Shown: positions 43,922-62,584 of the stretch, in pieces
Numbering within the stretch: position 1 is the first letter of the stretch
Layout of the letters: every line of letters begins with the position of its first letter
Assembly: GCA_028694645.1 (NCBI GenBank)
Contig: JAQVKM010000004.1
Span: forward strand, 79,365-143,364
Source of the DNA: Bacilli bacterium
GTDB lineage: Bacteria > Bacillota_I > Bacilli_A > RF39 > UBA660
Length of the DNA stretch: 64,000 nt
Direction: 5' to 3'
Program-made: the position numbers and the translations under genes
Notes under the pieces: model-generated
Told to the model about the DNA's origin: nothing
Seen by the model: only the letters and a program-made list of their open reading frames with translations
Databases searched by the model: none

Positions 43922-43987
43922 TGTGTTTTTTTATGAAAAATTAATAAATTATGATATAATTGATATATATTATGGCAATTTTGCTTA

Positions 43988-44737: not shown

Positions 44738-44745
44738 GTGTAATT

Positions 44746-45516
44746 ATGATAAAAAATTTATATGATTATAGAGAATTACTTAAGAGTAATGTAAAAAAAG
44801 AAATAAGAGGAAAATATAAAGGCTCTTTTTTAGGCGTGTTATGGTCTTTTGTAAATCCTCTTTTATCTGTATTAGTTTATGCAATTGTTTTTCCGATTAT
44901 CTTAAAACAAAGTCAAGATAATTATGTAACTTTCTTAATAATAGGAATATTACCTTGGACATTTTTTACAACTGTAATTAATCAAGGAACGTTTACTATT
45001 GTTGGAAATGCTGGAATCATTAAAAAAGTTTTTTTTCCAAGAGAAATACTGCCTATATCAGTAGTTACTAGTGGTTTAGTTAACTTTTTAATATCTTGTT
45101 TAATTATATTCATTTTCCTTATTTTTGGTGGAATAGGTTTTAGTTCATATATATTGTTATTGCCACTAATAATAATTACGCAATATATATTATCACTAGG
45201 GATTGTATTTATAACTAGTGCTATAAATGTTTATGTAAGAGATGCAGAATATATAATAAATTTCTTTATAATGATGTTGTTTTATGCAACACCAATATTG
45301 TATTCTTCAGAATTATTTGAAGGAACAAAATTTGCATGGATACTAAAATTAAATCCAATGGCATCTATTATTAATTCATATCGTGATATATTATTTTATC
45401 AACAAATGCCAGATTTAAAGACTATGTTAATTGTTCTAATAGGTAGTATTGCTTTATTATTTATTGGAATTCATGTATTTAAAAAATTAGAAAAAGGTTT
45501 TGCAGAAGAGGTGTAA
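44746..45516 (+). CDS. ABC-2 type transporter permease (TagG/Wzm-like)
   Basis: 6 TM helices. Immediately follows the ATPase. Confidence 0.75.
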   Translation: MIKNLYDYRELLKSNVKKEIRGKYKGSFLGVLWSFVNPLLSVLVYAIVFPIILKQSQDNYVTFLIIGILPWTFFTTVINQGTFTIVGNAGIIKKVFFPREILPISVVTSGLVNFLISCLIIFIFLIFGGIGFSSYILLLPLIIITQYILSLGIVFITSAINVYVRDAEYIINFFIMMLFYATPILYSSELFEGTKFAWILKLNPMASIINSYRDILFYQQMPDLKTMLIVLIGSIALLFIGIHVFKKLEKGFAEEV

Positions 45517-45517
45517 A

Positions 45518-47662
45518 GTGAAAAAATATGATTTTATTGGTATAAAAGAACAAACAATATATGGAGTTAAGAATCCATTATTACATATACAAGGAACAAT
45601 AAAATTAGAACATTATGATTTTATTGTTTATGCAGATACTGAAGAAATAAAATTTGAACTTACTATGCTAGGTGAAAAAGATAATTTCTTGTTAACTGCA
45701 AAATTACCAAACAAAACAAAAAATGTAAAAGTATTTATTAAATATGACGATAAATTAAAACTAATTAGCTCTTTAAATAATAAATTGCTAGGAAGATTAT
45801 ATAGAAAAATAAAAACTACTGCAAGAAGAATTTACTTAAAAATAAAATTGGCAATTATAATGATTTTTAGAGGAATTAAATTTTTATGGAGGGAACATCA
45901 TTTCTTAGTTCCACCAGCATTATGGAAAAAATATATTAAATATTATGTAGATAAAATTAAAAGTGGTATTGTGAATAATTTTTATGATCCATTTAGACAA
46001 AATGAATATTTAAATTGGATAAAAGAAAATGAGTGCGAAGAAACAATAATAAATTTTGAATATAATCCACTTATATCTATATTGATTCCAGTTTATAATA
46101 TTGGTGAAAAATATTTAACTGAATGTATTGAATCAATATTAAATCAATCTTATCAAAACTTTGAAATATGTTTAGTTGATGATGCATCAACTAAAGAAGA
46201 AACAATTAAAACTTTAAAAAAATATGAAGATAATTCTAAAATAAAAATAAAATATAGAGATAAAAATGGACATATTTCAAGAACAACAAATGATGCTTTA
46301 GAATTATCTAGTGGTGAGTTTGTAGCTTTAGTAGACAATGATGACTTATTATCAAAAAATGCCCTATATGAAGTTGTAAAAGTTTTAAATGAAAATAAAA
46401 ATCTAGATATGATTTATAGTGATGAAGATAAGATAGATTTTAAAGGTAATAGATGTGATCCTCACTTTAAACCTGATTTTTCTCCAGATACTTTACTTAG
46501 TTTAAATTATATATGTCATTTGGCTGTTTTAAGAAAAACTATTGTGGATGAAATTGGTGGATTTACAGTTGGACTTGAGGGAGCTCAAGATCATGATTTG
46601 TTTTTAAGATTTACCGAAAAAACAAATAAAATACATCATATATCAAAAATATTATATCATTGGCGTAAAATAGAAGGTTCTACTTCTGTTTCAATTGATA
46701 ACAAAAATTATGCAAATGATTTAGGCAAAAAAGCAATAGAAGAAGCACTTAAAAGAAGAAATATAAAAGGTCATGTTGAAAAAGATGTTAAAAGCACTTA
46801 TTATAAAGTTACATATGAATTTGAAAAAGAACCATTAGTATCTTTAATAATACCAACTAGAGATTATGCAGAAACATTAAAAACATGTTTAGATTCTATT
46901 TATGAAAAAACAACTTATAAAAATTATGAAATAATTATTGCAAATAACAATAGTGAAAAAAAAGAAACTTTTGATTTGTTTGATGATTATAAAAATAAGC
47001 ATGATAATTTTAAAGTTATAGATGTTAATACAGAATTTAATTATTCTCATATTAATAATGTTGCTGTAAAAGAATCAAATGGTGAGTATATAGTTTTACT
47101 AAATAATGATACTGAAATAATTACTGAAGATTGGTTAACAATATTAATCGGATATGCTTCACAATCACATATTGGAGCTGTTGGACCTAAACTGTTGTAT
47201 CCAGATTATTCTGTTCAACATGGTGGAGTTATATTAGGTTTAGGAGGAGTAGCATCACATGCGTATATTGGATCTTCAAGAGAAGATTTAGGTATGTATG
47301 GGAGATTATCTGTTCCATACAATTATTCAGCTGTAACAGCTGCTTGTTTAGCGATTTCAAGAAAAAAATTTGATGAAGTTAATGGTTTAGAAGAAGAATT
47401 AAAAGTTGCATATAATGATATTGACTTTAACATAAAACTATTACAAAAAGGATATTATAATGTATTTGTTCCACAAGTTGAAATAATACATTTTGAATCA
47501 AAATCAAGAGGATTAGATACAACTAGTGAAAAATATAAGAGATTTTTAATAGAATCAGATTATATGTATACTAAATGGAAATTGGATACAGATCGATTCT
47601 ATAACCCAAATTTCAGTAAAAAAGGATGGTTTGTCCTAGATAAAAAAAATAAAGAAAAGTAG
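45518..47662 (+). CDS. tandem two-domain family 2 glycosyltransferase
   Basis: Two GT-A modules (ISILIPVYN...LVDDAST and LVSLIIPTRD...). GTG start after a GAGGTG RBS. Confidence 0.7.
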   Translation: MKKYDFIGIKEQTIYGVKNPLLHIQGTIKLEHYDFIVYADTEEIKFELTMLGEKDNFLLTAKLPNKTKNVKVFIKYDDKLKLISSLNNKLLGRLYRKIKTTARRIYLKIKLAIIMIFRGIKFLWREHHFLVPPALWKKYIKYYVDKIKSGIVNNFYDPFRQNEYLNWIKENECEETIINFEYNPLISILIPVYNIGEKYLTECIESILNQSYQNFEICLVDDASTKEETIKTLKKYEDNSKIKIKYRDKNGHISRTTNDALELSSGEFVALVDNDDLLSKNALYEVVKVLNENKNLDMIYSDEDKIDFKGNRCDPHFKPDFSPDTLLSLNYICHLAVLRKTIVDEIGGFTVGLEGAQDHDLFLRFTEKTNKIHHISKILYHWRKIEGSTSVSIDNKNYANDLGKKAIEEALKRRNIKGHVEKDVKSTYYKVTYEFEKEPLVSLIIPTRDYAETLKTCLDSIYEKTTYKNYEIIIANNNSEKKETFDLFDDYKNKHDNFKVIDVNTEFNYSHINNVAVKESNGEYIVLLNNDTEIITEDWLTILIGYASQSHIGAVGPKLLYPDYSVQHGGVILGLGGVASHAYIGSSREDLGMYGRLSVPYNYSAVTAACLAISRKKFDEVNGLEEELKVAYNDIDFNIKLLQKGYYNVFVPQVEIIHFESKSRGLDTTSEKYKRFLIESDYMYTKWKLDTDRFYNPNFSKKGWFVLDKKNKEK

Positions 47663-47677
47663 AAAGGCAAATTTAAT

Positions 47678-49333
47678 ATGAAATTAACAAATAAAAAACA
47701 AATTTTTTATACTACTATTTTGCTGATAACTTATTTAATAATATTCTTTACAAATAATTATAATTATTTAGTTTTATTATTTTCAATAATTGCTATATTT
47801 TCATACTTAATAGGGACAAAAATTGATAGTGAAAAACTTGATAGGTTATTGGAATTTTTTGACAAAAAAAAAGTAACTTTTATCTTACAATTTATTATAT
47901 CATTGGTATTTGTAATTGGAATATATAAATTGGTGTATATTAGTTCATATAATAATTATATTTCAAAATATTATTTAATATTAACTTCGGTTTCTTTAGA
48001 AATTTTATGCATATTTTTATCCAGAAAATTAAAAAAAATAGCAATTGAAAAATTATTTATTTTAATTGCTATACCTATAGGGTTAGCATATTTAGTTTTT
48101 ATTATACCAAATCATGTGCCAGACGAGAATTGCCATTATTATTCAAGTTATAATTTTTCTAACGGAAACTTATTTTCAAATGAATTAAATGGCAATATTC
48201 CTAAGCAAATATTAATAAATGATATTAATAAGATAAATACATATAAAAATTTGGATGATGCTTTAAGATTAGAAGCAAATTATGATGATACAACAGATGT
48301 ATCAGTTTCAGCATATAATATATTTGTTTATTTTCCTGGGACTATTGGTATAGAAATAGGCAAAATACTAAATTTGCCAATATATTTAGGATTTTATTTT
48401 GCTAGAATATTGTGTTTTATAACTTATTTAATAATAGCTTATTATATTATTAAAATTTTGCCGGTAGGTAAAAATATTGCATTTGTATATATGTTGAACC
48501 CTATGATGATGCAACAATCAATTTCCTTATCGGCTGATAATTTGATTAATTTATATTGTTTACTATTTATAGCATATGTTATTAAATTAAAATATCAAAA
48601 AGAATATTTAAGTAAAAAAGAATTACTTGTTTTAGGTATATTGATGTTTTTAATAGCAATATCTAAATATGTTTATATTCCTATTGTCTTATTGTCTATT
48701 ATATTATTTTCAAAATCAAAAAAAAATAAGAAGAATTTAATTATTTTAATTATTGTTGCAATTATTTTATGTTGCCTAACATATGGGTATACATCCTTCT
48801 TTACAAAATCAACCCCAAATCCATATGTCATTGAAAACAATATAAGCACAACAGAACAATTAAAAAATATAATAAAGAGTCCATTAGTACTTTTGAAAAT
48901 GTATTATTATACTTTTATAAACTTAGGAGATTACTTCTTAGAAACTTTTATTGGAGCGAAACTAGGTTGGTTAAATATAGGTGTAAATGGATTAGTAATC
49001 AAGATATATATGATGCTGCTGATATTATCACCTTTTTTATTTAAAGAAGAAAATAGGTTAAATAAAAAAGAAAAATATTTATTTGTTGGTGTATCAATAG
49101 TTATTTTTTTACTAATAATACTTGGGTTATACTTATCTTGGACTGGTGTAGGACAATTAGTTGCTCTTGGTATACAAGGGAGATATTTTATACCTTTTGC
49201 AATATTGTTATTTATAGTATTATGTGATAAAAATAGATATCTAAGTTTTAAGAATGTTCTTAAAATAGAAACTTTTATATTGTTAGTATTACATAGCTCT
49301 GTTATAATGACAATAATTAATTTTTTTATATAA
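47678..49333 (+). CDS. large polytopic membrane protein (possible GT-C-fold glycosyltransferase)
   Basis: 551 aa with >10 TM helices. Adjacent to a GtrB-like gene. Confidence 0.45.
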   Translation: MKLTNKKQIFYTTILLITYLIIFFTNNYNYLVLLFSIIAIFSYLIGTKIDSEKLDRLLEFFDKKKVTFILQFIISLVFVIGIYKLVYISSYNNYISKYYLILTSVSLEILCIFLSRKLKKIAIEKLFILIAIPIGLAYLVFIIPNHVPDENCHYYSSYNFSNGNLFSNELNGNIPKQILINDINKINTYKNLDDALRLEANYDDTTDVSVSAYNIFVYFPGTIGIEIGKILNLPIYLGFYFARILCFITYLIIAYYIIKILPVGKNIAFVYMLNPMMMQQSISLSADNLINLYCLLFIAYVIKLKYQKEYLSKKELLVLGILMFLIAISKYVYIPIVLLSIILFSKSKKNKKNLIILIIVAIILCCLTYGYTSFFTKSTPNPYVIENNISTTEQLKNIIKSPLVLLKMYYYTFINLGDYFLETFIGAKLGWLNIGVNGLVIKIYMMLLILSPFLFKEENRLNKKEKYLFVGVSIVIFLLIILGLYLSWTGVGQLVALGIQGRYFIPFAILLFIVLCDKNRYLSFKNVLKIETFILLVLHSSVIMTIINFFI

Positions 49334-49447
49334 TATATTCATTAAATGATAAATAAAAAATATTAATTTATATTAAATTTAAACTAGAAACATCTAGTTT
49401 TTTTTATAACTTGTATGTTATAATTATAAAAGAAAAGTGGTGTTAAT

Positions 49448-50161
49448 ATGAATAAAATATTACTTATTATACCAGCGTATAATGAAGAAGAAAATATATT
49501 GAAAACTTACAAAACAATTACAAACTATTGTAAAAGAGAAAAAGTAAAATATGATGTCATCGTTATTAATGATGGTTCAACAGATGATACAAAAGAAATA
49601 TGTGAAAATAATAAAATTCCAACAATTAATTTAATTAATAATTTAGGAATTGGAGGAGCTGTTCAAACAGGATATAAGTATGCTTTTCAAAACAATTATG
49701 ATATAGCAATTCAGTTTGATGGAGACGGTCAACATGATGTAAGATATGTTGAGAAAATAATAGCTCCAATTCTAAAAAAAGAATCAGATTTAGTAATTGG
49801 ATCCCGTTTTATTGATAAAAATACTGATGGATTTAAATCAACACTATCAAGAAGAATAGGTATTAAATTAATTTCTTGGTTGATTAATATTGTTTGTAAA
49901 AAGAGAATATTTGATACAACCTCAGGATTTAGAGCTTGTAATAAAAAAATAATAGAGGAATTTGCAAATTCATATCCAGTTGAATATCCTGAACCAATAA
50001 CAACAGTAGAGGTTATAAAAAAAGGATATAACGTGAAAGAAGTTACAGTTAAAATGGCAGAAAGAATTGGTGGAGAATCATCAATTAAAGCATGGAAATC
50101 AGTTTATTATATGATTAATGTTTTTCTTTCAATAATAATAGTAGGGACAAGGAGGTATTAA
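49448..50161 (+). CDS. polyprenol-phosphate glycosyltransferase (GtrB/DPM1-like GT2)
   Basis: LLIIPAYNEEENI...VIVINDGSTDDT...QFDGDGQHD. Confidence 0.75.
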   Translation: MNKILLIIPAYNEEENILKTYKTITNYCKREKVKYDVIVINDGSTDDTKEICENNKIPTINLINNLGIGGAVQTGYKYAFQNNYDIAIQFDGDGQHDVRYVEKIIAPILKKESDLVIGSRFIDKNTDGFKSTLSRRIGIKLISWLINIVCKKRIFDTTSGFRACNKKIIEEFANSYPVEYPEPITTVEVIKKGYNVKEVTVKMAERIGGESSIKAWKSVYYMINVFLSIIIVGTRRY

Positions 50162-50162
50162 T

Positions 50163-50504
50163 ATGTCATTGAAAATAAAATTGGGGATGTTTTTCTTTTC
50201 AATAATTCTTGCATTATTTGTAAGTTACATATTAAAAAAAGAAAAAATGCCAGTTAAATATTCTATTGTTTGGTACCTAGCAGCATTTATTATATTATTG
50301 GCAGCAATTGTTCCAAACTTTTTAATATCAATATCAAGTTTTCTAGGTTTTGAAGCATTATCTAGTATGATAACTGGGCTAATGATAATTATTTTACTTT
50401 CAATTTCAATGGTGTTAACAGTAATTATATCGAATCAAAAAAGAACTATAGTTAAATTAATTCAAGAAGTGTCAATTATAAAGGGAAAAATAAATGAGGA
50501 ATAA
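50163..50504 (+). CDS. small membrane protein (DUF2304-like)
   Basis: 113 aa with 3 TM. Typical partner of GtrB-like genes. Confidence 0.4.
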   Translation: MSLKIKLGMFFFSIILALFVSYILKKEKMPVKYSIVWYLAAFIILLAAIVPNFLISISSFLGFEALSSMITGLMIIILLSISMVLTVIISNQKRTIVKLIQEVSIIKGKINEE

Positions 50505-51711
50505 AAATTTTTTTTGGAATATGATAGGCTCAACATTTAATGCATTTAATTCACTGTTTTTTATGGTTGTTGTAATAAGAATCAATGGCAGTGCTGATGC
50601 TGGTGTTTTTACATATTCATATTCAGTAGCTTGCCTCTTATATTATATTGGTATATATTTTGGAAGAACCTATCAAGTTACAGATACAAAAAAAGATTTC
50701 AGTGATAAAGATTATATATTCAATAGGTATATATCCATTTTTATAATGGTTATAATTTCAATAATATTTGTTGTAATAATGAAATTTGATAATTATAAAT
50801 CTTTAATTTTAATTTTATTAACTATTTATAGGGCAGTTGATGCATTAGCTGAAGTTTATTATGGTATTCTTCATAAAAATGAAAAATTGTATCTAGTTGG
50901 AATTTCTATGACATTAAAATCTTTATGTGGTTTAATATTATTTATTTTGGGTGATATTATATTCAAAAATATAATTTTAGCGTGTATATTTACCATATTA
51001 TTTAATTTAATTATTACAATTTTGAATGACAAAAGAAGGAGCAAAAAATATTTAGAAGAAGGAAATTCAAATTTTAAAAGTATTACAAGCATATATTTAA
51101 AATCATTTTTTGTATTTGCCTTTTCATTCTTGTCAATGTATATAGTGTCTGTTCCAAAATATTCAATGGTTAATTTACCGAATGAAGAACAGGCAATATT
51201 TGGAATAATAATGATGCCGGCAACTTTTGTTAGTTTGTGTGGATATTATATTATTAATCCATATTTAAATAAATTAACAGAATTTTATAAGAATAAAGAT
51301 AAAATAAATTTTGAATTGATTGTAAAAAAAATTTTACTATTTGTATTAGGAATTGGGGTGTTTGCTGAATTATGTGTATTTTCAGTAGCTATACCAATAT
51401 TAAATTTTGTGTTTAAAATAAATTTAAATGACTTCAAATTACAATTAGGAATAATAATTTTAGGTGCTGTTTTCTACACGGCAGGATTGGTATATTCAAA
51501 TGTATTGACAATATTCAGAAAGACCTTTGTTCAATTTATTATTTATGGTATAACTGCACTTGTTGGACTAGCTGTTTCTGTTGTTCTAATTTCTAATTAT
51601 TATCTGTTTGGAGGGACAATGTCATATTTTATTATAATGTCATTGCAATTATTATTGTATACAATAGTAACTAAAAGTATTATGAAAGAGGTTTTTAAAA
51701 ATGATAGATAA
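50494..51711 (+). CDS. Wzx-like oligosaccharide flippase (MOP superfamily)
   Basis: 405 aa with ~12 TM helices. Confidence 0.55.
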
Positions 51712-52285
51712 GATTGACTTAGTATTAAATGAACAAATAAACAATTTGAATGAATTGAAAAATAATAACTATAAAAATAAAATTATGGAAATCAGCAATT
51801 TGATTATTAATGCCATGAAAAATGGTAATAAAATTTTGATAGCTGGTAATGGTGGTTCAGCTGCAGATGCACAACATTTCGCAGCGGAATTAGTTGGAAG
51901 ATTTTGTTTAGAAAGAAAGGGACTACCGGCTATTGCATTAACAACCGATTCTTCTATTCTAACTTGTATGGGTAATGATTATGGATATGATTTTGTCTTT
52001 TCAAGACAAATTGAGGCACTTGGTAAAGCTGGTGATATTTTTATAGGAATATCAACAAGTGGAAATTCTAAAAATATTATTAATGCAACTTTAGAAGCAA
52101 ATAAAAATGGCATTATTTCAATATCTATGACAGGAAAAGATGGTGGAATAATTAAAGAAATAAGTGACTTTAATTTAAATTTTAATTATAAAGAAACAGC
52201 TAGAGTTCAAGAACATCACATAATGTCTATTCATTTAATTTGTGAGGCTGTAGAAAAAAAAATGAAGATATTTCAGGAGGGATAA
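51701..52285 (+). CDS. gmhA: D-sedoheptulose-7-phosphate isomerase
   Basis: SIS domain [19 protein letters not shown]...GISTSGNS. Confidence 0.8.
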
Positions 52286-52286
52286 A

Positions 52287-53516
52287 ATGAAACAAGGAAA
52301 TTATTTATCCAATAATTTTAGAAAAATATATGGTGTATTTCAGAAAAATTTATTCCTAAGAGATTTTAAAAATATTCTTTATTATGTTGATTTAATAATT
52401 CTGTTATTTATTGTTAAACCCAAAAAAATAAAATCACAAAAAAAGAAAATATTGGTTATTTATAATATGGCTTTTGGTGATGGCGTTATTTGGAGATGCA
52501 CATCTGTCCATTTAAACAAATTATACCCAAAGGAAAATTATGAGATAACTTTACTTTGTCAAAAAGGAATAAATAAATTGTATGAGAATGATGATACTTA
52601 CGATCATATTATTCCACTTGATTTTACGAAGGGAACTATTAGTTTGCCAGAGCGAATTAAAAACTTTAAAAAAATAAGAGAAGTATACTATGATTTAGTA
52701 ATTGACCCAATAGGAATAGTTGAGTGTACTACAAATGTTCTAATGACTAGAGCAGCTGTTGGAACAGAAAAAATTGGTTTAATTGATAAAGATGTTATTA
52801 TTCACTGTCCAAGACACATGACAAAAAAAATATATAATAAAATTATTGAAGTCAACGGCAAAGGAGTTTCTTTAATTGATTATTATGCAATATTTTTAAA
52901 GAAATTATCAAATGATAAATTAGATTTAAATGTTGGATATGAAAAAATAAAAACATATCCAACTAAAATAAAATTGCCAGAAAAATATTTTGTTGTATTT
53001 CCAAGTGCAAGTATGAAATTAAAAAGATGGGATATCTCCAAATACGTTGAATTATCTGGAAAAATACACGATAAAACAAAAATGCCAATTGTTTTAGTTG
53101 GTACAGTAGCTGATAAAGAAGCGATAGATCAATTCAAAAAGAATTTAAAAGTTCCCTTTGTTGATTTAGTTCAAAAAACAAATTTAAATGATTATATAAA
53201 TATAATTAAAAAGGCAGAGCTTGTTATAACTAATGACACTAGTGCTTATCATATCGCAGTAATTGAAGAAACCCCGGTTGCTATAATAACTGGTGGCTAT
53301 ACATATGATAGATATGTTGAATACAAATTTGAAAGAATGAATGAATTTAAAAAACCATGTATCATTGTAAATGAAATGAGCTGCTTCAATTGTGGAAATA
53401 GATGTCCTAATTTAAAAAAAGAGAACAGGAATTGGCCATGTTTAGAAAATATAACAGTTGATTTTGCTTGGAAAAAAATAGAAAAAATGATAAACGATGG
53501 AAAAATAGGAGAGTAA
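52287..53516 (+). CDS. glycosyltransferase family 9 (heptosyltransferase-like)
   Basis: C-terminal ITNDTSAYHIAV...ITGG matches the GT9 donor-binding motif. Confidence 0.6.
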   Translation: MKQGNYLSNNFRKIYGVFQKNLFLRDFKNILYYVDLIILLFIVKPKKIKSQKKKILVIYNMAFGDGVIWRCTSVHLNKLYPKENYEITLLCQKGINKLYENDDTYDHIIPLDFTKGTISLPERIKNFKKIREVYYDLVIDPIGIVECTTNVLMTRAAVGTEKIGLIDKDVIIHCPRHMTKKIYNKIIEVNGKGVSLIDYYAIFLKKLSNDKLDLNVGYEKIKTYPTKIKLPEKYFVVFPSASMKLKRWDISKYVELSGKIHDKTKMPIVLVGTVADKEAIDQFKKNLKVPFVDLVQKTNLNDYINIIKKAELVITNDTSAYHIAVIEETPVAIITGGYTYDRYVEYKFERMNEFKKPCIIVNEMSCFNCGNRCPNLKKENRNWPCLENITVDFAWKKIEKMINDGKIGE

Positions 53517-53517
53517 T

Positions 53518-54966
53518 ATGAATGTTGAAAAACTACGCGCAATAAATGATAAAAATATATTAGTTTTCGGTGATTATATGGTAGATAAGTATATTCTTGG
53601 AGATGTTAGCAGAATATCACCAGAAGCACCAGTTCCTGTTATACAAATGAGAGAAGAACAATGTAAAATTGGTGGAGCTGGCAATGTGATAAATAATATT
53701 ATTTCATTAGGTGCAAACGTAAAAGCTCTTGGTTGTGTTGGGGAAGATGAAGCCGGAAACTTCATAATTGATAATTTCAATAAAAATGATATTGATATTT
53801 TGCATTTTCGAAAAATGTCAAATATCAAGACTATATGTAAAACAAGAATTGTATCAAAAAAACAACAATTTTTAAGAATAGATGAGGAAAACATAAAGGA
53901 ATTACCATATGAATACTATGATTATTTAAATCAAAATATAGAAGATATTTTTAGTGAAATAAATCTTTTAATAATATCAGATTATGCTAAAGGAGCAGTT
54001 GTTGAAAAAACATCACAATTATTAATAAGAAAAGCCAAAGAAAAAAATATTCCTATAATTGTGGATCCTAAAGGCAATGACTACAGTAAATATTTTGGAG
54101 CAACAATTGTAACTCCGAATGTTAAAGAATTAAGTGACGTAGTTAAAAAAGAACTTTCAACAGAAGAGTCAATTATTATTGAAAGTGGTAAGTTATGTGA
54201 AAATTTTGGTTTTGACTATGTTATGTTGACGCGATCAGAAAAAGGTATAAGTTCAATTAATAAGGATTACGAGAAAAAAGATTTTCCTGCTGTTGCAAAG
54301 GAAATTATTGATGTTTCTGGAGCTGGAGATACAGTTGTTGCCACCATGGCATTAACAATGACATTGGGATTTTCAATTGAAGAAATGTGTAGAATTGCAA
54401 ATATAGCTGCATCAATCGTTGTATCAAAATTTGGAACTAGCACAGTGAATCTAAATGAATTAGTAAGCAATATATCAATTACAAGAGAGTTTAAATTATT
54501 AACTTCTGAAACAGCTGATTATATAATTGAATACTTAAGAGAAAATGGAAAAAAAATAGTTTTTACAAATGGGTGTTTTGATTTATTACATGCAGGTCAT
54601 TTATCCTCATTTAAAAAAGCCAAAGAATTTGGCGATGTTTTGATTGTTGCAGTCAATAGCGATTTATCTATAAAGAGAATAAAAGGAGAATTACGACCAA
54701 TAATAAAGGAAAAAGATCGTATTGAAATGCTTTGTGCATTAGAATGTATCGATTATGTGATTTTAATGGAAGATGATAATCCAATTGAATTATTAAAAAA
54801 ATTAAAACCAGATGTATCCGTTAAAGGAAAAGATTGGGAGAATAAAAATGTAGTTGAAAAACCAGTAATAGAAGAATATGGTGGAAAAATAGAATTTATA
54901 GATTTAGAATCAGGAATATCTACAACTACAATTATTGAAAGAATATTAAGAGCATATAATGAATAA
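53518..54966 (+). CDS. hldE: bifunctional D-beta-D-heptose 7-phosphate kinase / heptose 1-phosphate adenylyltransferase
   Basis: N-terminal pfkB-like kinase domain. C-terminal cytidylyltransferase-like FTNGCFDLLHAGH. 482 aa. Confidence 0.85.
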   Translation: MNVEKLRAINDKNILVFGDYMVDKYILGDVSRISPEAPVPVIQMREEQCKIGGAGNVINNIISLGANVKALGCVGEDEAGNFIIDNFNKNDIDILHFRKMSNIKTICKTRIVSKKQQFLRIDEENIKELPYEYYDYLNQNIEDIFSEINLLIISDYAKGAVVEKTSQLLIRKAKEKNIPIIVDPKGNDYSKYFGATIVTPNVKELSDVVKKELSTEESIIIESGKLCENFGFDYVMLTRSEKGISSINKDYEKKDFPAVAKEIIDVSGAGDTVVATMALTMTLGFSIEEMCRIANIAASIVVSKFGTSTVNLNELVSNISITREFKLLTSETADYIIEYLRENGKKIVFTNGCFDLLHAGHLSSFKKAKEFGDVLIVAVNSDLSIKRIKGELRPIIKEKDRIEMLCALECIDYVILMEDDNPIELLKKLKPDVSVKGKDWENKNVVEKPVIEEYGGKIEFIDLESGISTTTIIERILRAYNE

Positions 54967-55486
54967 AGTTATATTTTTAGATAGAGATGGAACTATTAAT
55001 TTTGATTCTGGTTATTTACATGAAATAGAAAAATTTAAGTTTTTACCGGGGGTTATTGATGGATTAAAATCTCTTCAAAATATGGGATTTAAGCTTATTA
55101 TTGTTACAAACCAATCTGGAATTGAAAGAGGATTTTTTAATGAATTTGACTATAAAATCTTAACTGATTATATGCTAAATGAATTAGAAAAAGAAGGAAT
55201 TAAAATAGAAAAGGTATATTATTGTCCTCATTTTTTTAGTAATTGTAATTGTCGAAAACCAAAATTAGAACTTTTTTATAAGGCAAAGGATGAATATGAT
55301 ATAGATTTTTCAAAGTCATATGCCATAGGAGATAAGAAAAGGGACTTGTCGATTTGCGAAAAAGAAAAAACAAAAGGAATACTTATTTCCTCTGAATTTG
55401 AGTCAATACAACTACAAGGGAATATAGCATTAGTCAAAAATTTTAAAGAAGCTGTTTTGCTTATACAAAAAAATGAAACAAATTAA
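54959..55486 (+). CDS. gmhB: D-glycero-D-manno-heptose 1,7-bisphosphate phosphatase
   Basis: HAD motif FLDRDGTIN. 175 aa. Confidence 0.8.
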   Translation: MNKVIFLDRDGTINFDSGYLHEIEKFKFLPGVIDGLKSLQNMGFKLIIVTNQSGIERGFFNEFDYKILTDYMLNELEKEGIKIEKVYYCPHFFSNCNCRKPKLELFYKAKDEYDIDFSKSYAIGDKKRDLSICEKEKTKGILISSEFESIQLQGNIALVKNFKEAVLLIQKNETN

Positions 55487-55504: not shown

Positions 55505-55545
55505 ACCACATGGTAATATAAATATTTACAAATGTGGTTTTTATT
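55505..55545 (+). terminator. terminator hairpin after gmhB
   Basis: CCACATGGTAA..TTACAAATGTGG stem followed by a T-run. Confidence 0.5.
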
Positions 55546-55579
55546 TATTTTTTATTGTATAATATGCATAGGTGGTAAT

Positions 55580-57496
55580 GTGAAAAAGAAATATAAATTT
55601 TTATTATTTGCTATTTTATTAATAGTGTTGAAACAAATTTTAATTAATAATTTGCCTATTTATGCAATTGGCAATAGTTCATGTGATGATCAATTAATGA
55701 TTATGATGGAGGCAAATTTATTAAAATTAAACTGGTTAGGAGATTTTAATAGTTTAACTTTAGTTAAAGGAATTTTTTTTCCATTTTTTCTTGCCGTTAA
55801 TGCCTTTTTGGGTATATCATATATAAATGGAATTACACTTTTTTACTCAATTGCATGTCTGATTTTTGTATATAGTATTAGAAAAATATTTCATAAAGAA
55901 TGGCCTATTTATTTAATATTTTTATTATTGCTATTTAATCCAATTATGTTTTCATTGGAAACAGCACAAAGGGTTTATAGGAATTCATTAACTCCGGGTC
56001 AAGTTTTATTAATTATGGCATCTATATTTGCTATGTTTATTAATAGAAAAAATAACAAGAATATATTATGGTGGTCTATATTTGGAGGAATATCATTAGC
56101 GACATTTTGGAATACTAGAGAAGATGCTATATGGATATTACCTTTTATTTTAGTTTTTACTATGATAATGATAGTAGAACATATTGTTACAAATAAAAAT
56201 AAATTTCAATTAAAAAAAATAATAATATTTATATTACCATTAATAATTCTTCAAACATTTAATATTGGTATTTCAACTATTAATTATATGAAATATGGTG
56301 TTTTTACGAGAGTTGATTTGAGTAATACTAATTTTAGTGAAGCTATTGAGGCGATATATTCTGTTCCAACTTATGATAATATAGAATATACTTCTGTTAC
56401 TAAAGAAAAACTTGAAAGACTATATGATATTAGTCCATCACTTAATAGCATTTCAGAAGAATTAAATGCTATTTCCATTTCAATGGATCAAAATGGTAGA
56501 ATTCCGAGTGATGAGCAAATAGAAGATGGATGGTTTTGGTGGGCACTAAGATTTGCAGCTGAAGCAAAAGGCTATTATGAGAATGCTATTAAAGCGGAGA
56601 ATTTTTTTGGAGATATAGTTAATGAAATAGAAACTGCACAAAAAAATGGTTTGATTGAAAAGCAGTCTACTATGCCATCAGCATTGATGAGCCCTTGGCG
56701 AGAAGGTTATTTAAAAAAATTATTTAATACTAGTCTTGAAATAATAAAATATACAAACAATTATACTGATGTTAATGCAATTGCTATGGAAAGTGTTGGT
56801 AGTTATAATTCAATTAAATTTTTCGAAATAGCTACCAATGATACAGCAATATATCCAGCTCAACTTTCAAATATTGAAGGATGGTATAGATATAATTATG
56901 AAGATTATTATATAATAGCAAATGTTAATAATGAAGCTTTAAAAAGAATAAATTGTAAAAAACAAGAAAATTGTGAAATAAATATAGATTTTAATATTAG
57001 CCAAAGTGATGAAACAATTAGTTTGAAAATATTTAATATAAATGATAGTTTGATTAAACAAATAAATATAGTTGACGATATAACATCTGAAATTGGAGAT
57101 AATTATTCTTATAATATTAATTTATCAAAAATTACTGATCCAAACATGCTTCAAAAAGAATTTTTGAATGTTTATGTTGGACGACTAAATATAATAGGAC
57201 TTCTTTATAAAAAAACAGGAATAATTTGTGGGATAATAGGACTTGTTTCATATATTGGAGTTACCATTATTGCTTTATTTAAAAATAAAAAAATTATAGA
57301 TAAATGGTTAATTTTGAGTAGTATTTTGGCTACATATTTGGTATTATGTATAGGAGTTTCATATAATCATATTTCATCTTGCCATTCCATTAGCTCTATG
57401 TATTTATCTGCTGCCTATTCATTAATAATAATTTTTTGGTCAATGTCTATATTTGTTTTGATTGATTATATAAAAGAAAAAAAATTAAATAATTAA
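55580..57496 (+). CDS. large polytopic membrane protein (possible GT-C-type glycosyltransferase)
   Basis: AGGTGG RBS then GTG. N-terminal ~10 TM helices, a soluble middle and a C-terminal TM pair. Confidence 0.45.
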   Translation: MKKKYKFLLFAILLIVLKQILINNLPIYAIGNSSCDDQLMIMMEANLLKLNWLGDFNSLTLVKGIFFPFFLAVNAFLGISYINGITLFYSIACLIFVYSIRKIFHKEWPIYLIFLLLLFNPIMFSLETAQRVYRNSLTPGQVLLIMASIFAMFINRKNNKNILWWSIFGGISLATFWNTREDAIWILPFILVFTMIMIVEHIVTNKNKFQLKKIIIFILPLIILQTFNIGISTINYMKYGVFTRVDLSNTNFSEAIEAIYSVPTYDNIEYTSVTKEKLERLYDISPSLNSISEELNAISISMDQNGRIPSDEQIEDGWFWWALRFAAEAKGYYENAIKAENFFGDIVNEIETAQKNGLIEKQSTMPSALMSPWREGYLKKLFNTSLEIIKYTNNYTDVNAIAMESVGSYNSIKFFEIATNDTAIYPAQLSNIEGWYRYNYEDYYIIANVNNEALKRINCKKQENCEINIDFNISQSDETISLKIFNINDSLIKQINIVDDITSEIGDNYSYNINLSKITDPNMLQKEFLNVYVGRLNIIGLLYKKTGIICGIIGLVSYIGVTIIALFKNKKIIDKWLILSSILATYLVLCIGVSYNHISSCHSISSMYLSAAYSLIIIFWSMSIFVLIDYIKEKKLNN

Positions 57497-57556
57497 TTAT
57501 TTACAAATGTGGTTTTTATTTTATATTTAATATATAATAATATTAGGTGATAAAAT

Positions 57557-58360
57557 ATGAAAAAATTTAGTATAATATTGCTAATAATAATTTTATTATT
57601 TATTACCACAACAAATATTAATGCAAAAAGTTTTATAACATTGCCAAATCAAATAAATTTGGTAGGTAAGAAAATATATCAAGAACAAAACAGATTTATT
57701 AAAATGAAAGAAAAAAACAATTTTTATTTTGAAAACAAAAATTTTTATAATTCAATTACGGGATTGCTAACTACAAATGGAAAAAAAATAATAGATATTT
57801 CCTCACATCAAAAAGATATAAATTGGGATATAACAAGAAGATTTGTTGATGGAGTTATATTAAGAATTGGATATGGCAGTAAAAATATTGATAAAAATTT
57901 TGAACAAAATATAATTGAAATAAAAAAATATAATATTCCTTATGGAATATATTTATATAGTTATGCTGAAAATAGATGGGATACTTTAGAAGAAAATAAA
58001 TTTATATTAAAAATTATAAATGATTATAATTTAAATCCTAAACTAGGAATATACTATGATATAGAAGAGTTTTATATGAACAATCAAAAAATTAAAATAA
58101 GTTCAGAAACTTATGATAAAATAATAGATGAATTTATAAGTTTCTTTCATAATAAAAGATACTTTAATATAGGAATATATACTAATAATAGATTTTATAA
58201 ATATAATATAAATAGAGAATCAAAAAAATATGTAAGATGGATAGCTCAGTACAATTGTTATTTTAATTGGCAAAATAATTTTAAAATTTGGCAGTTTACA
58301 GATAAAGGAGCCATTCCTGGAATAAGTACTAATGTAGATATAAATGTAATGTTTAATTAA
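57557..58360 (+). CDS. GH25-family muramidase (lysozyme), secreted
   Basis: Signal peptide. DISSHQKDINW and GVILRIGYGS match GH25 motifs. Confidence 0.7.
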   Translation: MKKFSIILLIIILLFITTTNINAKSFITLPNQINLVGKKIYQEQNRFIKMKEKNNFYFENKNFYNSITGLLTTNGKKIIDISSHQKDINWDITRRFVDGVILRIGYGSKNIDKNFEQNIIEIKKYNIPYGIYLYSYAENRWDTLEENKFILKIINDYNLNPKLGIYYDIEEFYMNNQKIKISSETYDKIIDEFISFFHNKRYFNIGIYTNNRFYKYNINRESKKYVRWIAQYNCYFNWQNNFKIWQFTDKGAIPGISTNVDINVMFN

Positions 58361-58416
58361 AATGCTTTATTTAAAGTATTTTTTTTAGTATAATGTAATT
58401 ATCAAGGAGTGGTTTT

Positions 58417-59343
58417 ATGGATAAAATAGCAGTACTAATACCATGCTATAATGAATCAAAAACGATAGAAAAAGTAGTAAAAGATTATAAAGAAGTATTG
58501 CCTGAGGCAACAATATATGTATATGATAATAATTCAAAAGATAAAACTGATGAAATAGCTTTATCTGCAGGAGCTGTTGTTCGTTATGAATATAAACAAG
58601 GTAAAGGAAATGTTATTCGAAGTATGTTTCGAAAAATAGATGCTGAGTGTTATATTATGATTGATGGAGATGATACATATCCAGCAGAAAATGCTAGAGA
58701 AATGGTAGATTTAATTTTAAGTGGTAAAGCTGATATGGTAATAGGCGATAGATTATCATCAACATATTTTACTGAAAATAAAAGACCATTTCATAACTTT
58801 GGAAATAAAATTGTAAGACTTTTAATTAATAAATTATTTAATAATAACGTTAAAGATATTATGACAGGATATAGAGCTTTTAGCTACGAATTTGTTAAGA
58901 GTTTTCCTATATTATCAAAAGGATTTGAAATTGAAACAGAAATGACTATTCATGCAGTTGATAAAAATTTTAAATTAGTTGAAATACCAGTTACGTATAG
59001 AGATCGCCCAGTTGGAAGCGTATCAAAATTAAACACTTATAAAGATGGTATGAAAGTTTTAAAAACAATTTTTAATTTGTTTAAAGAATATAAACCAGCT
59101 TCCTTTTTTAATATTGTTTCATTGATAATATTATTATTTTCATTGGCTCTTGGAATGCCCGTTATTATAGAATATTTAAAAACAGGATTAGTTCCAAGAT
59201 TTCCGTCATTAATTGTTTCTTGTATTTTGCTAGTTTTAACATTTATTTTATTTGCAACAGGAACAATATTGCAAGTTATTGTAAAAAAACATAAACAATT
59301 ATATGAATTATTTTTAAACAATTTATATAATAAAGAGAAATAA
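58417..59343 (+). CDS. polyprenol-phosphate glycosyltransferase (GtrB/CsbB-like GT2) with C-terminal TM helices
   Basis: IAVLIPCYNESKTI...YVYDNNSKDKT. Two C-terminal TM segments. Confidence 0.75.
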   Translation: MDKIAVLIPCYNESKTIEKVVKDYKEVLPEATIYVYDNNSKDKTDEIALSAGAVVRYEYKQGKGNVIRSMFRKIDAECYIMIDGDDTYPAENAREMVDLILSGKADMVIGDRLSSTYFTENKRPFHNFGNKIVRLLINKLFNNNVKDIMTGYRAFSYEFVKSFPILSKGFEIETEMTIHAVDKNFKLVEIPVTYRDRPVGSVSKLNTYKDGMKVLKTIFNLFKEYKPASFFNIVSLIILLFSLALGMPVIIEYLKTGLVPRFPSLIVSCILLVLTFILFATGTILQVIVKKHKQLYELFLNNLYNKEK

Positions 59344-59344
59344 A

Positions 59345-59752
59345 ATGAAAAATAAAATCAGAAATTTAAAAAATCAAAAATTATTAAAACAAATATTCAA
59401 ATTTGGAATAGTTGGTGGATTAGCTTTTATAATAGACTATGCTTTATTATTTATATTAACAAAAATAATAAAAATGTATTATTTAGATGCATCAATTATT
59501 TCATTTGTTGTTTCATTAATATTCAATTATATAGCTAGTATTAAGTTTGTTTTTGATGTTAAGAAAAAACAAACAATAAAAGAAATATTTATTTTTGTTT
59601 TATTAAGTGTAATTGGACTTGGAATAAATCAAGTAATATTATATATAACTGTTGATTTAATATTAATAGATGTTATGATTGGTAAAATATTTGCAACAGC
59701 AATAGTAATGATATGGAATTTTATAACAAGAAAAATATTTATTGAAAAATAG
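59345..59752 (+). CDS. GtrA-family membrane protein
   Basis: 135 aa with 4 TM. KFGIVGGLAFIIDYALLFIL. Confidence 0.7.
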   Translation: MKNKIRNLKNQKLLKQIFKFGIVGGLAFIIDYALLFILTKIIKMYYLDASIISFVVSLIFNYIASIKFVFDVKKKQTIKEIFIFVLLSVIGLGINQVILYITVDLILIDVMIGKIFATAIVMIWNFITRKIFIEK

Positions 59753-60106: not shown

Positions 60107-60559
60107 ATGAGACAAGCTATTGGAAGTGTACCAATGTACAATATAATAATGGTTTTTATAGTAATAACTTTCGGTTTCTTGTCTGCAACCTTAAGTTATA
60201 TGAAAGCTTTTAAAGTGAATGGTAGAATTGCAAAAGCATTAGAAAATTATGAAGGCTATAATATTCTTTCAAATAACGAAATAACTGAAACTTTATCTAA
60301 TATAGGATATAAAATAGGAGATGCAAGTAGTTATTCTTGTCCAACAAGAGATAACAAAGCAGCCGTTCAAGCTATAACAGGTAAAAATCATGTTTATTGT
60401 TTGTATGAATTAGATTATTATCAAAATGGAACAACAAAAACAAGATATTTTAATTATGGTATTGTAAGCTATATTTTTATAGATCTTCCTATAATTGGTG
60501 AAACAATAAAAGTTCCAGTTTATTCAGAAACAGAAAAAATATTTAGATTTTCTGCTTAA
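60107..60559 (+). CDS. N-terminally anchored secreted protein, TadE/pseudopilin-like (paralog 1)
   Basis: 150 aa with N-terminal TM helix. Conserved CP.R.N...YC.Y pair shared with the next ORF. Confidence 0.5.
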   Translation: MRQAIGSVPMYNIIMVFIVITFGFLSATLSYMKAFKVNGRIAKALENYEGYNILSNNEITETLSNIGYKIGDASSYSCPTRDNKAAVQAITGKNHVYCLYELDYYQNGTTKTRYFNYGIVSYIFIDLPIIGETIKVPVYSETEKIFRFSA

Positions 60560-60574
60560 TTAGGAGTTGATTAA

Positions 60575-61033
60575 ATGAAAGAATCTATAGGAAATGCCTT
60601 TATAATGGGAATAGTTATAACATTTATAATTATTTTCATGATTTTTTTTGCAAGTTCATTAGCATACACTAAGGCTTTTAAAGCAAAAAACAAAATAGTT
60701 GAAATAATCGAAAAATATGATGATATTTTAAGTCAAAGTGCATCAGAAAATTCTGTTTTAATTAATGCAGTTGAAGCAGAAATAAATGAGACTTTGTCTG
60801 GTATGGGATATCGTATTAGCCCTACTTCTAATAATTGTCCATCTAGAAATAATGTTTCAGCTGTTAGAAAACAAGAAACAGCAAATTATGAATATTGTGT
60901 ATACAAATATACAACAACTAAAGGAAATTATTATGGAGTAACAGCTTATATGTATTTTGAAATTCCTATAATAGGGGTTGGACTTAGATTTCCAGTTTAC
61001 GGAGAAACTAAGATAAGTGGAATTTTAGGTTAG
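60575..61033 (+). CDS. N-terminally anchored secreted protein, TadE/pseudopilin-like (paralog 2)
   Basis: 152 aa. Same architecture and Cys pair as the previous ORF. Confidence 0.5.
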   Translation: MKESIGNAFIMGIVITFIIIFMIFFASSLAYTKAFKAKNKIVEIIEKYDDILSQSASENSVLINAVEAEINETLSGMGYRISPTSNNCPSRNNVSAVRKQETANYEYCVYKYTTTKGNYYGVTAYMYFEIPIIGVGLRFPVYGETKISGILG

Positions 61034-61043
61034 GAGGAATTAG

Positions 61044-62048
61044 ATGAACGTAATTATTGCTAACAAATATCAATCGATGCTAGAAACATTAGAAATTGAT
61101 GTTATAAAAAAACTAGAAGGTGAATTTGAAGTTGAAGATATAATAAATCAATTTCAAAATTTTTTCTTTCAAAGAATGATTTTGGATATCACAGCTATTA
61201 AAGATTATCGTGATATTAAAACCTTACAAAAATTATCTATTTCATTAGATATGGATAAAGTTATATTATTATTAGACGATTCATCTGAGGGAACTTCTAA
61301 TGATTATTTATCAAAATTGATTTCAATGGGAATATATAATTTTACTAAGAACATAGAAGGAATAATGTATTTATATAATAATCCTAATTCATATCGTGAT
61401 GTTGCACATATACAACAATTAGATATGACATCAGGAGAAGAAGTTATTATAGAAAAATATGAACAAGCAGTAGTTGGAACTAGAATTATTGGTATTAAAA
61501 ATGTTACTAAACAGTCTGGTGCAACAACATTATCTTATATGATAAAAAATCAGTTAAAACAAAATTATTCAGTAGTGGCTATAGAAGTAAATAAAAGTGA
61601 CTTTAGATATTTTGGTGATAAATCACTTATATCTACAACTAATTTTGAAATAGGAAATCAAATTTCAAAATATAGTGATAATGATGTTATTATTGTAGAT
61701 ATAAATGATTCAAAACAAGCAGAAGATTTATGTCATGATGTTATTTATTTAGTAGAACCATCTATCATTAAATTAAATAAATTGATGCTAGTTAATAGTG
61801 GAGCATTTAAAGATTTAGCTAAAAGAGATGCAAAAGTAGTTTTAAATCAAAGCTTATTAAATTCAAAAGATGTTTTAGATTTTGAATATGAGTCTGGAGC
61901 TAAAGTATTTTATAATATGCCACCACTTGATGAAAGAGAAAAAAGTATATTCGCTTTAAATTCGTTTTTAGTTAGATTAGGATTTAATAAGCAAAAAGAA
62001 GAACAACAAGAAAAAAAGAAATCGCTTTTAAGCTTATTTAGCAAATAA
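61044..62048 (+). CDS. TadZ/CpaE-like protein: receiver-like N-domain plus degenerate ParA/MinD-like ATPase domain
   Basis: IGIKNVTKQSGATTLS is a degenerate deviant Walker A. The N-terminal ~120 aa have a REC-like pattern. Confidence 0.4.
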   Translation: MNVIIANKYQSMLETLEIDVIKKLEGEFEVEDIINQFQNFFFQRMILDITAIKDYRDIKTLQKLSISLDMDKVILLLDDSSEGTSNDYLSKLISMGIYNFTKNIEGIMYLYNNPNSYRDVAHIQQLDMTSGEEVIIEKYEQAVVGTRIIGIKNVTKQSGATTLSYMIKNQLKQNYSVVAIEVNKSDFRYFGDKSLISTTNFEIGNQISKYSDNDVIIVDINDSKQAEDLCHDVIYLVEPSIIKLNKLMLVNSGAFKDLAKRDAKVVLNQSLLNSKDVLDFEYESGAKVFYNMPPLDEREKSIFALNSFLVRLGFNKQKEEQQEKKKSLLSLFSK

Positions 62049-62487: not shown

Positions 62488-62584
62488 TATTAATATAGAA
62501 ATTATATGGAATTTATTCCATATTTTTTTTTATTATGATATAATGTATTTGTAAAAAAATATTTTTTAGCGTGGAGTGATATTT

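Follow-up and report, generated by a model that had tools for sequence, protein, structure and literature searches.

The stretch of DNA analyzed here, 64 kb in length and referred to throughout as the window, belongs to a Bacilli bacterium (RF39; UBA660; assembly GCA_028694645.1, contig JAQVKM010000004.1, positions 79,365-143,364 of the forward strand). At window positions 51701-55486 it carries a heptose cassette of four contiguous open reading frames (ORFs) on the plus strand, gmhA, a GT9-family transferase gene, hldE and gmhB, each 1 nt apart from or overlapping the next. By textbook accounts the four pathway enzymes and GT9 serve the lipopolysaccharide (LPS) core, and the Bacilli, like the Lachnospiraceae, are a monoderm lineage. 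The basis of the analysis is in silico throughout, with the product and the acceptor deduced. An earlier, sequence-only reading of this DNA had proposed a complete set of these four genes within a glycan locus, and its coordinates proved exact and its domain assignments passed a check with hidden Markov models (HMMs; NCBIfam cut-offs and PF01075).

The assignments of GmhA, both HldE domains and GmhB pass curated NCBIfam cut-offs (Table 1). The bifunctional HldE held in each of its halves, with the kinase domain at 359.5 bits against TIGR02198 (cut-off 345) and the adenylyltransferase domain at 190.5 bits against TIGR02199 (cut-off 181.5), and the full-length model PRK11316 returned 488.6 bits, slightly below its cut-off of 521. 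GmhB scored 166 against the beta-specific model NF006506 (cut-off 178) and 147 against the alpha-specific model NF050049 (cut-off 250). Because four neighbors match four steps of one pathway, a chance assembly was ruled out. Two of the cassette proteins are already named in GenBank, MDD3453395.1 as a GT9 protein and MDD3453396.1 as a heptose-7-phosphate kinase. The GDP-heptose (HddA/HddC) route, for which a GHMP-type alpha kinase and a guanylyltransferase are expected, was not matched, the kinase being of the PfkB type and the nucleotidyltransferase of the HldE domain II type. An arginine termed 'STTR5' is reported to confer promiscuity for CTP and UTP (commentary on Tang et al. 2024), and exceptions to this rule were noted by the same work. 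The C-terminus of the window HldE reads GGKIEFID-LESGISTT, and the eight residues ahead of the (F/L)xxGxSTT motif contain no arginine; the STTR5 arginine is therefore absent and ADP-heptose is the expected nucleotide sugar.

The preceding gene overlaps the start of gmhA by 11 nt and genes abut or overlap all along positions 50163-55486, so that the whole was read as one operon. In order, the module consists of a DUF2142 polytopic protein, a GacI/WpsA-like GT2, a GacJ/WpsB-like DUF2304 protein, a Wzx-fold flippase, and then gmhA, GT9, hldE and gmhB. The 237-aa GT2 carries a D91-G-D93-G-Q95 motif comparable to D96/D98/Q100 of WpsA, the D-x-D-x-Q motif having been described for WpsA and DPMS, and is predicted to be a polyprenyl-phosphate N-acetylhexosamine (HexNAc) synthase; its best NCBIfam match is PpgS (the polyprenyl-phospho-GalNAc synthase of mycobacteria). 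The DUF2304 gene starts 2 nt past the stop of this GT2. GacJ, WpsB and Rv3632 all belong to DUF2304 and are small membrane proteins that bind and activate GacI, WpsA and PpgS, with GacJ stimulating GacI and Rv3632 doing likewise for PpgS (bioRxiv 10.1101/180810), and the window protein would by analogy activate the preceding GT2. For the DUF2142 protein, a candidate GT-C-type transferase acting from lipid carrier to wall polymer, a profile search against Protein Data Bank (PDB) sequences returned nothing useful; proteins of this family accompany WpsA/WpsB/Wzx homologues in the rgp loci of Streptococcus thermophilus (PMC9746298). A promoter-like site (11/12 matches, 49307-49334) lies just upstream of the GT2 gene at 49448, and constitutes weak evidence, as such matches in DNA of 25% GC number 227 and barely exceed the shuffled expectation of 197 +/- 13.

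The 405-aa protein that overlaps gmhA has no Pfam or NCBIfam match, and neither a relaxed Pfam scan (E <= 10) nor a profile search against PDB sequences gave anything meaningful. An AlphaFold2 (AF2) model built on an alignment of 24 homologues (predicted local distance difference test, pLDDT, 88.7) was compared with the PDB by Foldseek and matched best the lipid III flippase WzxE (TM-score 0.67-0.71; 0.71 for 9g9n), MurJ (TM-score up to 0.74) and MATE transporters, and PF01943 is carried by two of its homologues. On its modeled fold the protein is a Wzx-type flippase of the multidrug/oligosaccharidyl-lipid/polysaccharide (MOP) superfamily, with flipping predicted. Of the 'Wzx/Wzy pair' in the sequence-only reading, the Wzx member thus stands by predicted fold, while the supposed Wzy is a PF13425 protein that could be a ligase or a polymerase.

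Table 1. Genes of the heptose cassette, the adjoining scaffold and the neighboring polysaccharide loci (window positions; a single number is a start position)
Feature	Position	Strand	Size	Evidence and remarks
O-antigen-ligase-like protein, PF13425	41002-42300	+		Pfam
GT2	42279	+		Pfam/NCBIfam
GT2	43136	+		Pfam/NCBIfam
TagH/Wzt-like ABC ATPase	43988	+		Pfam/NCBIfam
ABC-2 permease	44728	+		Pfam/NCBIfam
Double GT2	45500	+	720 aa	Pfam/NCBIfam; upstream block spans 41002-47662
DUF2142 polytopic membrane protein	47678-49333	+	551 aa	PF09913, 149.6 bits
GacI/WpsA/PpgS-like GT2	49448-50161	+	237 aa	PF00535, 85.9 bits
DUF2304 small membrane protein, GacJ/WpsB/Rv3632 type	50163-50504	+	113 aa	PF10066, 61.7 bits (cut-off 25.5)
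Wzx-type (MOP superfamily) flippase, GacK/WpsG analogue	50494-51711	+	405 aa	Predicted fold
GmhA, sedoheptulose-7-phosphate isomerase	51701-52285	+	194 aa	TIGR00441, 217.8 bits (cut-off 209.45); PF13580
GT9-family heptosyltransferase-fold enzyme	52287-53516	+	409 aa	PF01075 (Glyco_transf_9), 71.4 bits (cut-off 22)
Bifunctional HldE, heptose-7-phosphate kinase and heptose-1-phosphate adenylyltransferase	53518-54966	+	482 aa	TIGR02198 and TIGR02199
GmhB, heptose 1,7-bisphosphate 7-phosphatase	54959-55486	+	175 aa	TIGR00213, 162.6 bits (cut-off 149.6)
Polytopic protein, no family	55532-57496	+	654 aa	Widespread Firmicute family
Secreted GH25 muramidase	57557-58360	+		Pfam
AglJ/DPMS-like GT2	58417-59343	+		Pfam/NCBIfam
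GtrA	59345-59752	+		Pfam

A pattern scan in which each GTDB species was represented by one genome recovered 24 loci, which were mapped by tblastn and ORF-level phmmer. These originate from uncultured Bacilli (rabbit, chicken (Candidatus Onthousia), roe deer and human gut (CAG:321)) and from Lachnospiraceae, and include two cultured carriers, Lachnospira multipara ATCC 19207 and Eubacterium sp. 14-2; the source record is labeled Bacilli and those of the relatives Bacilli and Lachnospiraceae. The GC content of the loci ranges from 23 to 48%, at ~25% in the Bacilli and 30-48% in the Lachnospiraceae. GT9 adjoins gmhA, hldE and gmhB in every locus for which sequence was available (23/23), in 21 of the 24 loci the fetched flank includes the GacI-like GT2, nearly always followed by the DUF2304 gene, and a Wzx-like protein adjoins the cassette in most. 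The flanking polytopic protein (500-850 aa, 10-14 predicted transmembrane segments) belongs by Pfam to DUF7657+DUF7654 in eight loci and to DUF2142 in four, and the rest have no family. One locus (L013; JBLNAG010000001.1) is labeled as an Ignavibacteriales bacterium, yet has 25% GC and shares synteny and 50% identity with the Bacilli loci, and is probably a mis-binned or mislabeled contig.

A control seeded on the flippase, using the contigs of four Wzx-like homologues (40-45% identity), gave the same framework with other contents. All four loci place a polytopic protein (DUF6020, DUF7657+DUF7654 or no family) before a ~230-aa GT2, a DUF2304 protein, a further GT2, the Wzx-like protein and GT2/Gtf3/Glf genes, and none of the four contains gmhA, GT9, hldE or gmhB. 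As the control loci fill the slot with other glycosyltransferases, the heptose cassette represents one interchangeable filling of a variable slot for an elongating glycosyltransferase and its precursor genes. The DUF7657+DUF7654 proteins stand at the expected GT-C position beside GacI/GacJ-like pairs (L003:4970-7096, seven other loci and L029:3828-6092) and DUF6020 proteins hold this position in other sister loci; both may represent new GT-C families. In many loci gmhB is followed by an Acyl_transf_3 protein, or such a protein lies inside the block (11/16 mid-sized membrane proteins tested; for example L002, L003, L004, L005, L007 and L023 at ~13.1-14.4 kb, and also L018, L020, L021 and L022), so that many relatives would O-acylate their heptose-containing glycan. 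In the window, no Acyl_transf_3 gene occupies the position after gmhB.

HldD is required only for the L,D form of the product. The absence of hldD from the window, remarked on in the sequence-only reading, was borne out, with no Epimerase domain in Pfam scans of all window ORFs of at least 250 aa and no window match in tblastn with E. coli K-12 HldD at E <= 1e-3. By tblastn among the related loci, true HldD orthologues occur only in two from Lachnospiraceae metagenome-assembled genomes (L017 and L024; 47% and 42% identity to E. coli HldD, respectively), where the kinase and the adenylyltransferase are separate genes (HldA/HldC split). These clusters, which unite the split genes and HldD (L017:16517-18946 and L024:12296-14695) and have no GacI-like gene in the fetched flank, are an L,D-heptose variant of the system. 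Thus the epimerase, where it is used, sits inside the cluster, which makes its absence from the window cluster meaningful; given that the locus encodes no HldD, it is probably the D,D form that is used, and D,D-heptose is the likely product.

The scaffold around the cassette corresponds to that of two published systems. In Streptococcus pyogenes, GacI and GacJ make GlcNAc-P-undecaprenol (GlcNAc, N-acetylglucosamine), the Wzx protein GacK is the proposed flippase, and the GT-C enzyme GacL adds GlcNAc to ABC-exported polyrhamnose (bioRxiv 10.1101/180810). In Lactococcus lactis, the GlcNAc-P-C55 made by WpsA/WpsB is elongated in the cytoplasm by the strain-variable WpsC, flipped by the Wzx protein WpsG and attached by the GT-C enzyme WpsJ. 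Since the module architecture is that of the GacI/Wps systems, the window is concluded to encode such a system with GT9 in the role of WpsC, that is, a heptose-adding variant of the GacIJKL/WpsABCGJ-type multi-component transmembrane glycosylation that decorates a Gram-positive wall polysaccharide, which we regard as the probable reading while holding it with some reserve. Under this scheme, GmhA, HldE and GmhB, all identified by HMM, would make the ADP-heptose donor, probably in the D,D form. Homology and gene pairing suggest that the GacI-like GT2 and its DUF2304 partner would make HexNAc-phosphate-undecaprenol at the inner membrane face, and synteny suggests that GT9 would move heptose from ADP-heptose to this lipid-linked HexNAc in the cytoplasm. 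The Wzx-fold protein would then flip Hep-HexNAc-P-undecaprenol, and the DUF2142 protein would probably attach the side chain to the polymer supplied by the neighboring GT2s and ABC exporter. As a variable elongation module feeding an ABC-exported polymer, the cassette points to the side chain of a wall polysaccharide more than to a classical teichoic acid or the glycan of an S-layer protein. The sequence-only reading, which left these three destinations side by side, is in this way backed by comparative genomics with regard to heptose on a wall glycan, and the setting among GT2s and a TagGH-like ABC exporter that it described is as found (Table 1).

Several points weigh against this scheme. 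The GacI-like GT2 is far under the PpgS cut-off (88 bits against 370), and the sugar loaded onto the lipid is therefore only predicted. The candidate GT-C transferase differs in kind between loci. In three loci (L017, L023 and L024) the heptose genes and GT9 are present and the fetched flank lacks a GacI-like gene, from which it follows that GT9 need not depend on a HexNAc-lipid acceptor. An hldD gene could lie elsewhere in the genome. Heptose in these organisms is not reported in the searchable literature, though absence there is no proof. Lastly, synteny would not in itself separate elongation of a lipid-linked HexNAc from direct heptosylation of a lipid-linked backbone.

This last point leads to an alternative that we consider unlikely, in which GT9 heptosylates an undecaprenyl-diphosphate-linked backbone in the cytoplasm (as a branch, adaptor or terminating cap) prior to ABC export, and the GacI/GacJ/Wzx/GT-C genes form an independent HexNAc side-chain system nearby. 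WaaC and WaaF, the GT9 enzymes of LPS, work at the cytoplasmic face on acceptors anchored to lipid, as GT9 would here, and the three loci without a flanking GacI-like gene are as expected if the two systems are separable. Many related loci have the ABC ATPase, permease and double GT2 close to the cassette, but the distance and orientation of these ABC genes vary, whereas the run from the flippase through gmhA, GT9, hldE and gmhB is tight, kept in order and joined by translational overlaps. Sister loci, moreover, put other cytoplasmic glycosyltransferases in the very same slot, which also argues against this alternative.

The GT9 enzyme itself departs from the LPS heptosyltransferases. Its 195 relatives among 5.8 billion proteins are nearly all metagenomic, and an alignment of 24 relatives has 45 invariant positions, including G64-D65, K246-x-W248 and N316-D317-T318. 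In HMM and MAFFT alignments, D65, K246, D317 and T318 correspond to D13, K192, D261 and T262 of WaaC, which structural work on WaaC assigns as the catalytic base and the residues that bind ADP-heptose; G64-D65 lies opposite G12-D13, K246-x-W248 opposite K192-x-W and D317-T318 opposite D261-T262, and the four residues are invariant in the 24 homologues. The predicted GT-B fold is closest to solved GT9 enzymes, in keeping with the Glyco_transf_9 match, with comparison figures of 30.2 for the Veillonella GT9 protein 3tov, 26.6 for WaaF, 26.0 for WaaC, 20.5 for TibC and at most 12.8 for other GT-B enzymes. Compared with E. coli WaaC/WaaF, identity is ~17-19%, the predicted model has an N-terminal extension of ~50 residues formed by two helices (9-20 and 22-40), there is a four-cysteine (Cys4) insertion, and the donor is probably the D,D and not the L,D epimer. 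All LPS equivalog models were missed widely (TIGR02195, 64.5 against a cut-off of 134.6; TIGR02193, 51.4 against 185.3; TIGR02201, 23.7 against 170.2; PRK models far under their cut-offs), so the protein is a GT9-fold enzyme and not an orthologue of WaaC, WaaF or WaaQ.

These scores bear directly on the proposal that the host is a diderm and the locus one for the LPS inner core, a proposal that we find scarcely credible. HldE, GmhA, GmhB and GT9 do make up the classical route to that core, and the best structural match is a protein from Veillonella, a diderm Firmicute. Against this stand the equivalog scores, the monoderm lineages of the source labels, and a locus of the Gram-positive Rgp/cell-wall polysaccharide (CWPS) type; no lpx, kds/kdo or waa genes, including those for Kdo-lipid A (Kdo, 3-deoxy-D-manno-oct-2-ulosonic acid), were seen among the annotated ORFs of the window.

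The Cys4 insertion, C366-x2-C369-x3-C373-x11-C385, is invariant and falls in a coil stretch of the C-lobe. When 1.84 billion representative proteins were scanned with HMMER, 697 of them fell in the wider clade at E <= 1e-30. The top 150 matches include 138 full-length proteins, and 124 of these have the C-x2-C-x3-C...C motif. Clade-wide the motif takes the form C-x2-C-x3-C-x(10-13)-(P)C (P0361-P0508), and WaaC and WaaF are without it. Two species additionally have a second GT9 paralogue adjoining the cassette (L012:2730-3983 and L015:13217-14422; 36-38% identity to the window enzyme), which suggests di-heptose or branched side chains there.

To our knowledge, TibC is the only heptosyltransferase with a four-cysteine metal site, which raises an improbable third option, that GT9 carries out a TibC/AAH-like O-heptosylation of a pilin, S-layer protein or adhesin. 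TibC uses ADP-D,D-heptose as donor and has in its C-lobe an iron finger in which Fe(III) is bound by C339, C342, C358 and C370 (PMC4358343). The spacing of these cysteines differs from that in the window enzyme, and the match of the latter to the BAHT model TIGR04414, although present (E 3.4e-4), amounts to 19.7 bits against a cut-off of 200; TibC was absent from the GT9 profile searches at E <= 10. Unlike the window enzyme with its N-terminal helices, TibC, which glycosylates protein, carries a beta-barrel at its N-terminus; it assembles as a dodecamer. A pilin-like gene does lie 12 kb upstream, but across the 24 loci no candidate substrate gene is conserved beside the cassette, and what is conserved is the lipid-carrier GT2, its partner and the flippase.

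A fourth option, that the ADP-heptose serves a soluble product such as a septacidin- or hygromycin-type metabolite or a signaling nucleotide sugar, is very improbable. It would accord with reviews in which ADP-heptose in Gram-positives is documented only for the antibiotics of Streptomyces, and with the wide occurrence of heptose nucleotide synthesis across kingdoms in roles that are mostly unknown. The window and related loci, however, contain no polyketide synthase, nonribosomal peptide synthetase, aminocyclitol or nucleoside-antibiotic genes, and instead have glycan-assembly neighbors throughout, with a dedicated GT9 and flippase inside the operon. Both the LPS-core and the secondary-metabolite readings were rejected, as both are at odds with the gene content and the taxonomy.

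Further glycan genes lie on either side of the module. The upstream block (41002-47662) is presumed to be the backbone machinery. Two genes upstream of its PF13425 protein, the window encodes a 307-aa protein whose N-terminus bears a prepilin methylation motif (38793-39716), and this proximity makes pilin glycosylation a possibility, or the PF13425 protein may simply be a wall-polymer ligase or polymerase. Downstream, the block at 55532-59752 is a probable second glycosylation system, of the GtrA-type with three components, in which the 654-aa protein would be a new GT-C candidate. The family of this protein has an invariant DD near the first loop (residues 36-37 of the 638-aa form P0241). It has no Pfam, NCBIfam or PDB match, and a relaxed Pfam scan (E <= 10) and a PDB profile search were unhelpful. 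By tblastn among the related loci it was found only in L001, from the same organism, and the GtrA-type block is not conserved with the heptose cassette. Further downstream, a 353-aa protein has a C-terminal T4SS_pilin domain (62576-63637) and is preceded by three ORFs of 150, 152 and 334 aa with no family match (60107-62048).

The window as a whole has a GC content of ~25%, and at 0.25-0.26 the cassette is the same as its surroundings with no compositional break; a recent horizontal import of the cassette was rejected on this basis. Also encoded are SecA, pyruvate kinase, pyruvate:ferredoxin oxidoreductase (PFOR), pyruvate formate-lyase, BacA, an Amidase_3 protein and the GH25 muramidase. By Pfam, an S11 D-Ala-D-Ala carboxypeptidase is followed by two Gate-domain membrane proteins, an arrangement that resembles the dacB-spmA-spmB operon of endospore formers. 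No SpmA/SpmB equivalog was found by NCBIfam, and the host may be an endospore former, to judge by this gene arrangement. The first half of the window includes an IS-type integrase (rve; 6706-7467, minus strand), an HTH regulator (22414-23328) and an Abi_2 abortive-infection protein (29469-30404), and the GC skew dips at 6-8, 18-20, 28-30 and 32-34 kb; these may be mobile or defense islets unrelated to the glycan locus.

It should be noted that the components and the overall logic of the proposed system all have clear precedents. The pairing of a soluble DxDxQ GT2, here a predicted HexNAc synthase, with a DUF2304 protein is shared with the polysaccharide pellicle (PSP) of L. lactis/cremoris (WpsA/WpsB, WpsC, WpsG and WpsJ) and with S. 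thermophilus rgp. The variable glycosyltransferase slot for cytoplasmic elongation, the Wzx flippase, the putative polytopic transferase and an ABC-exported backbone alongside likewise resemble those of the Lactococcus PSP. Where the window differs from the PSP is in a proposed elongating enzyme of GT9 fold fed by its own ADP-heptose pathway, in the lack of rml genes in the window and in a candidate polytopic transferase of DUF2142 or, in relatives, DUF7657/DUF7654. With no Wzy-like polymerase linked to it, the module may build only a short oligosaccharide as its side chain. The four-part logic of GacI/GacJ/GacK/GacL in S. pyogenes, a GT2 with DUF2304, a Wzx protein and a polytopic transferase to an ABC-exported polymer, is also the same as that predicted here, but the Gac system contains no heptose genes and moves one GlcNAc that is not elongated in the cytoplasm.

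Heptose on a Gram-positive surface also has a counterpart in the D-glycero-D-manno-heptose of the Aneurinibacillus thermoaerophilus S-layer glycan, although that heptose is made by the GDP-alpha route, and the window, where surface heptose is predicted, has the ADP-beta route with a bifunctional HldE. ADP-heptose in Gram-positives likewise occurs in the septacidin and hygromycin B pathways of Streptomyces, but those are actinobacterial secondary-metabolite clusters and the window is a Firmicute envelope glycan locus. No description of an ADP-heptose/GT9 module in a GacI/GacJ/Wzx-type wall-polysaccharide system was found in the searchable literature, nor anything relevant on the Cys4 GT9 clade, GT9 in Gram-positives, or heptose in Lachnospiraceae, L. 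multipara or these Bacilli. The enzymes and the type of system are thus known, and the combination and the Cys4 GT9 clade appear, from these searches, to be without a description.

That the Cys4-marked GT9 clade heptosylates undecaprenyl-monophosphate-HexNAc and not Kdo-lipid A, and that monoderm gut commensals truly produce ADP-D,D-heptose, is a proposal for and against which we see the case as evenly poised. The idea is directly testable because two of the carriers, L. multipara ATCC 19207 and Eubacterium sp. 14-2, are cultured. If true, it would give a function to part of the large GT9 clade and would add a sugar linked to polyprenyl monophosphate to the acceptors of GT9 enzymes, beside Kdo-lipid A and proteins. 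Heptose would also be a new surface antigen or phage-receptor sugar on the wall polysaccharides of Firmicutes. Heptose usually counts as a Gram-negative hallmark; microbiome and innate-immunity work takes ADP-heptose as a marker and effector of Gram-negatives, and a 2025 study of ALPK1 and clonal haematopoiesis contrasts depletion of Gram-negatives with that of Gram-positives. The organisms described here would be a Gram-positive gut source of ADP-D,D-heptose, an ALPK1 agonist credited to Gram-negatives, and some Gram-positive gut bacteria probably make and display heptose and make the immune-stimulating ADP-heptose.

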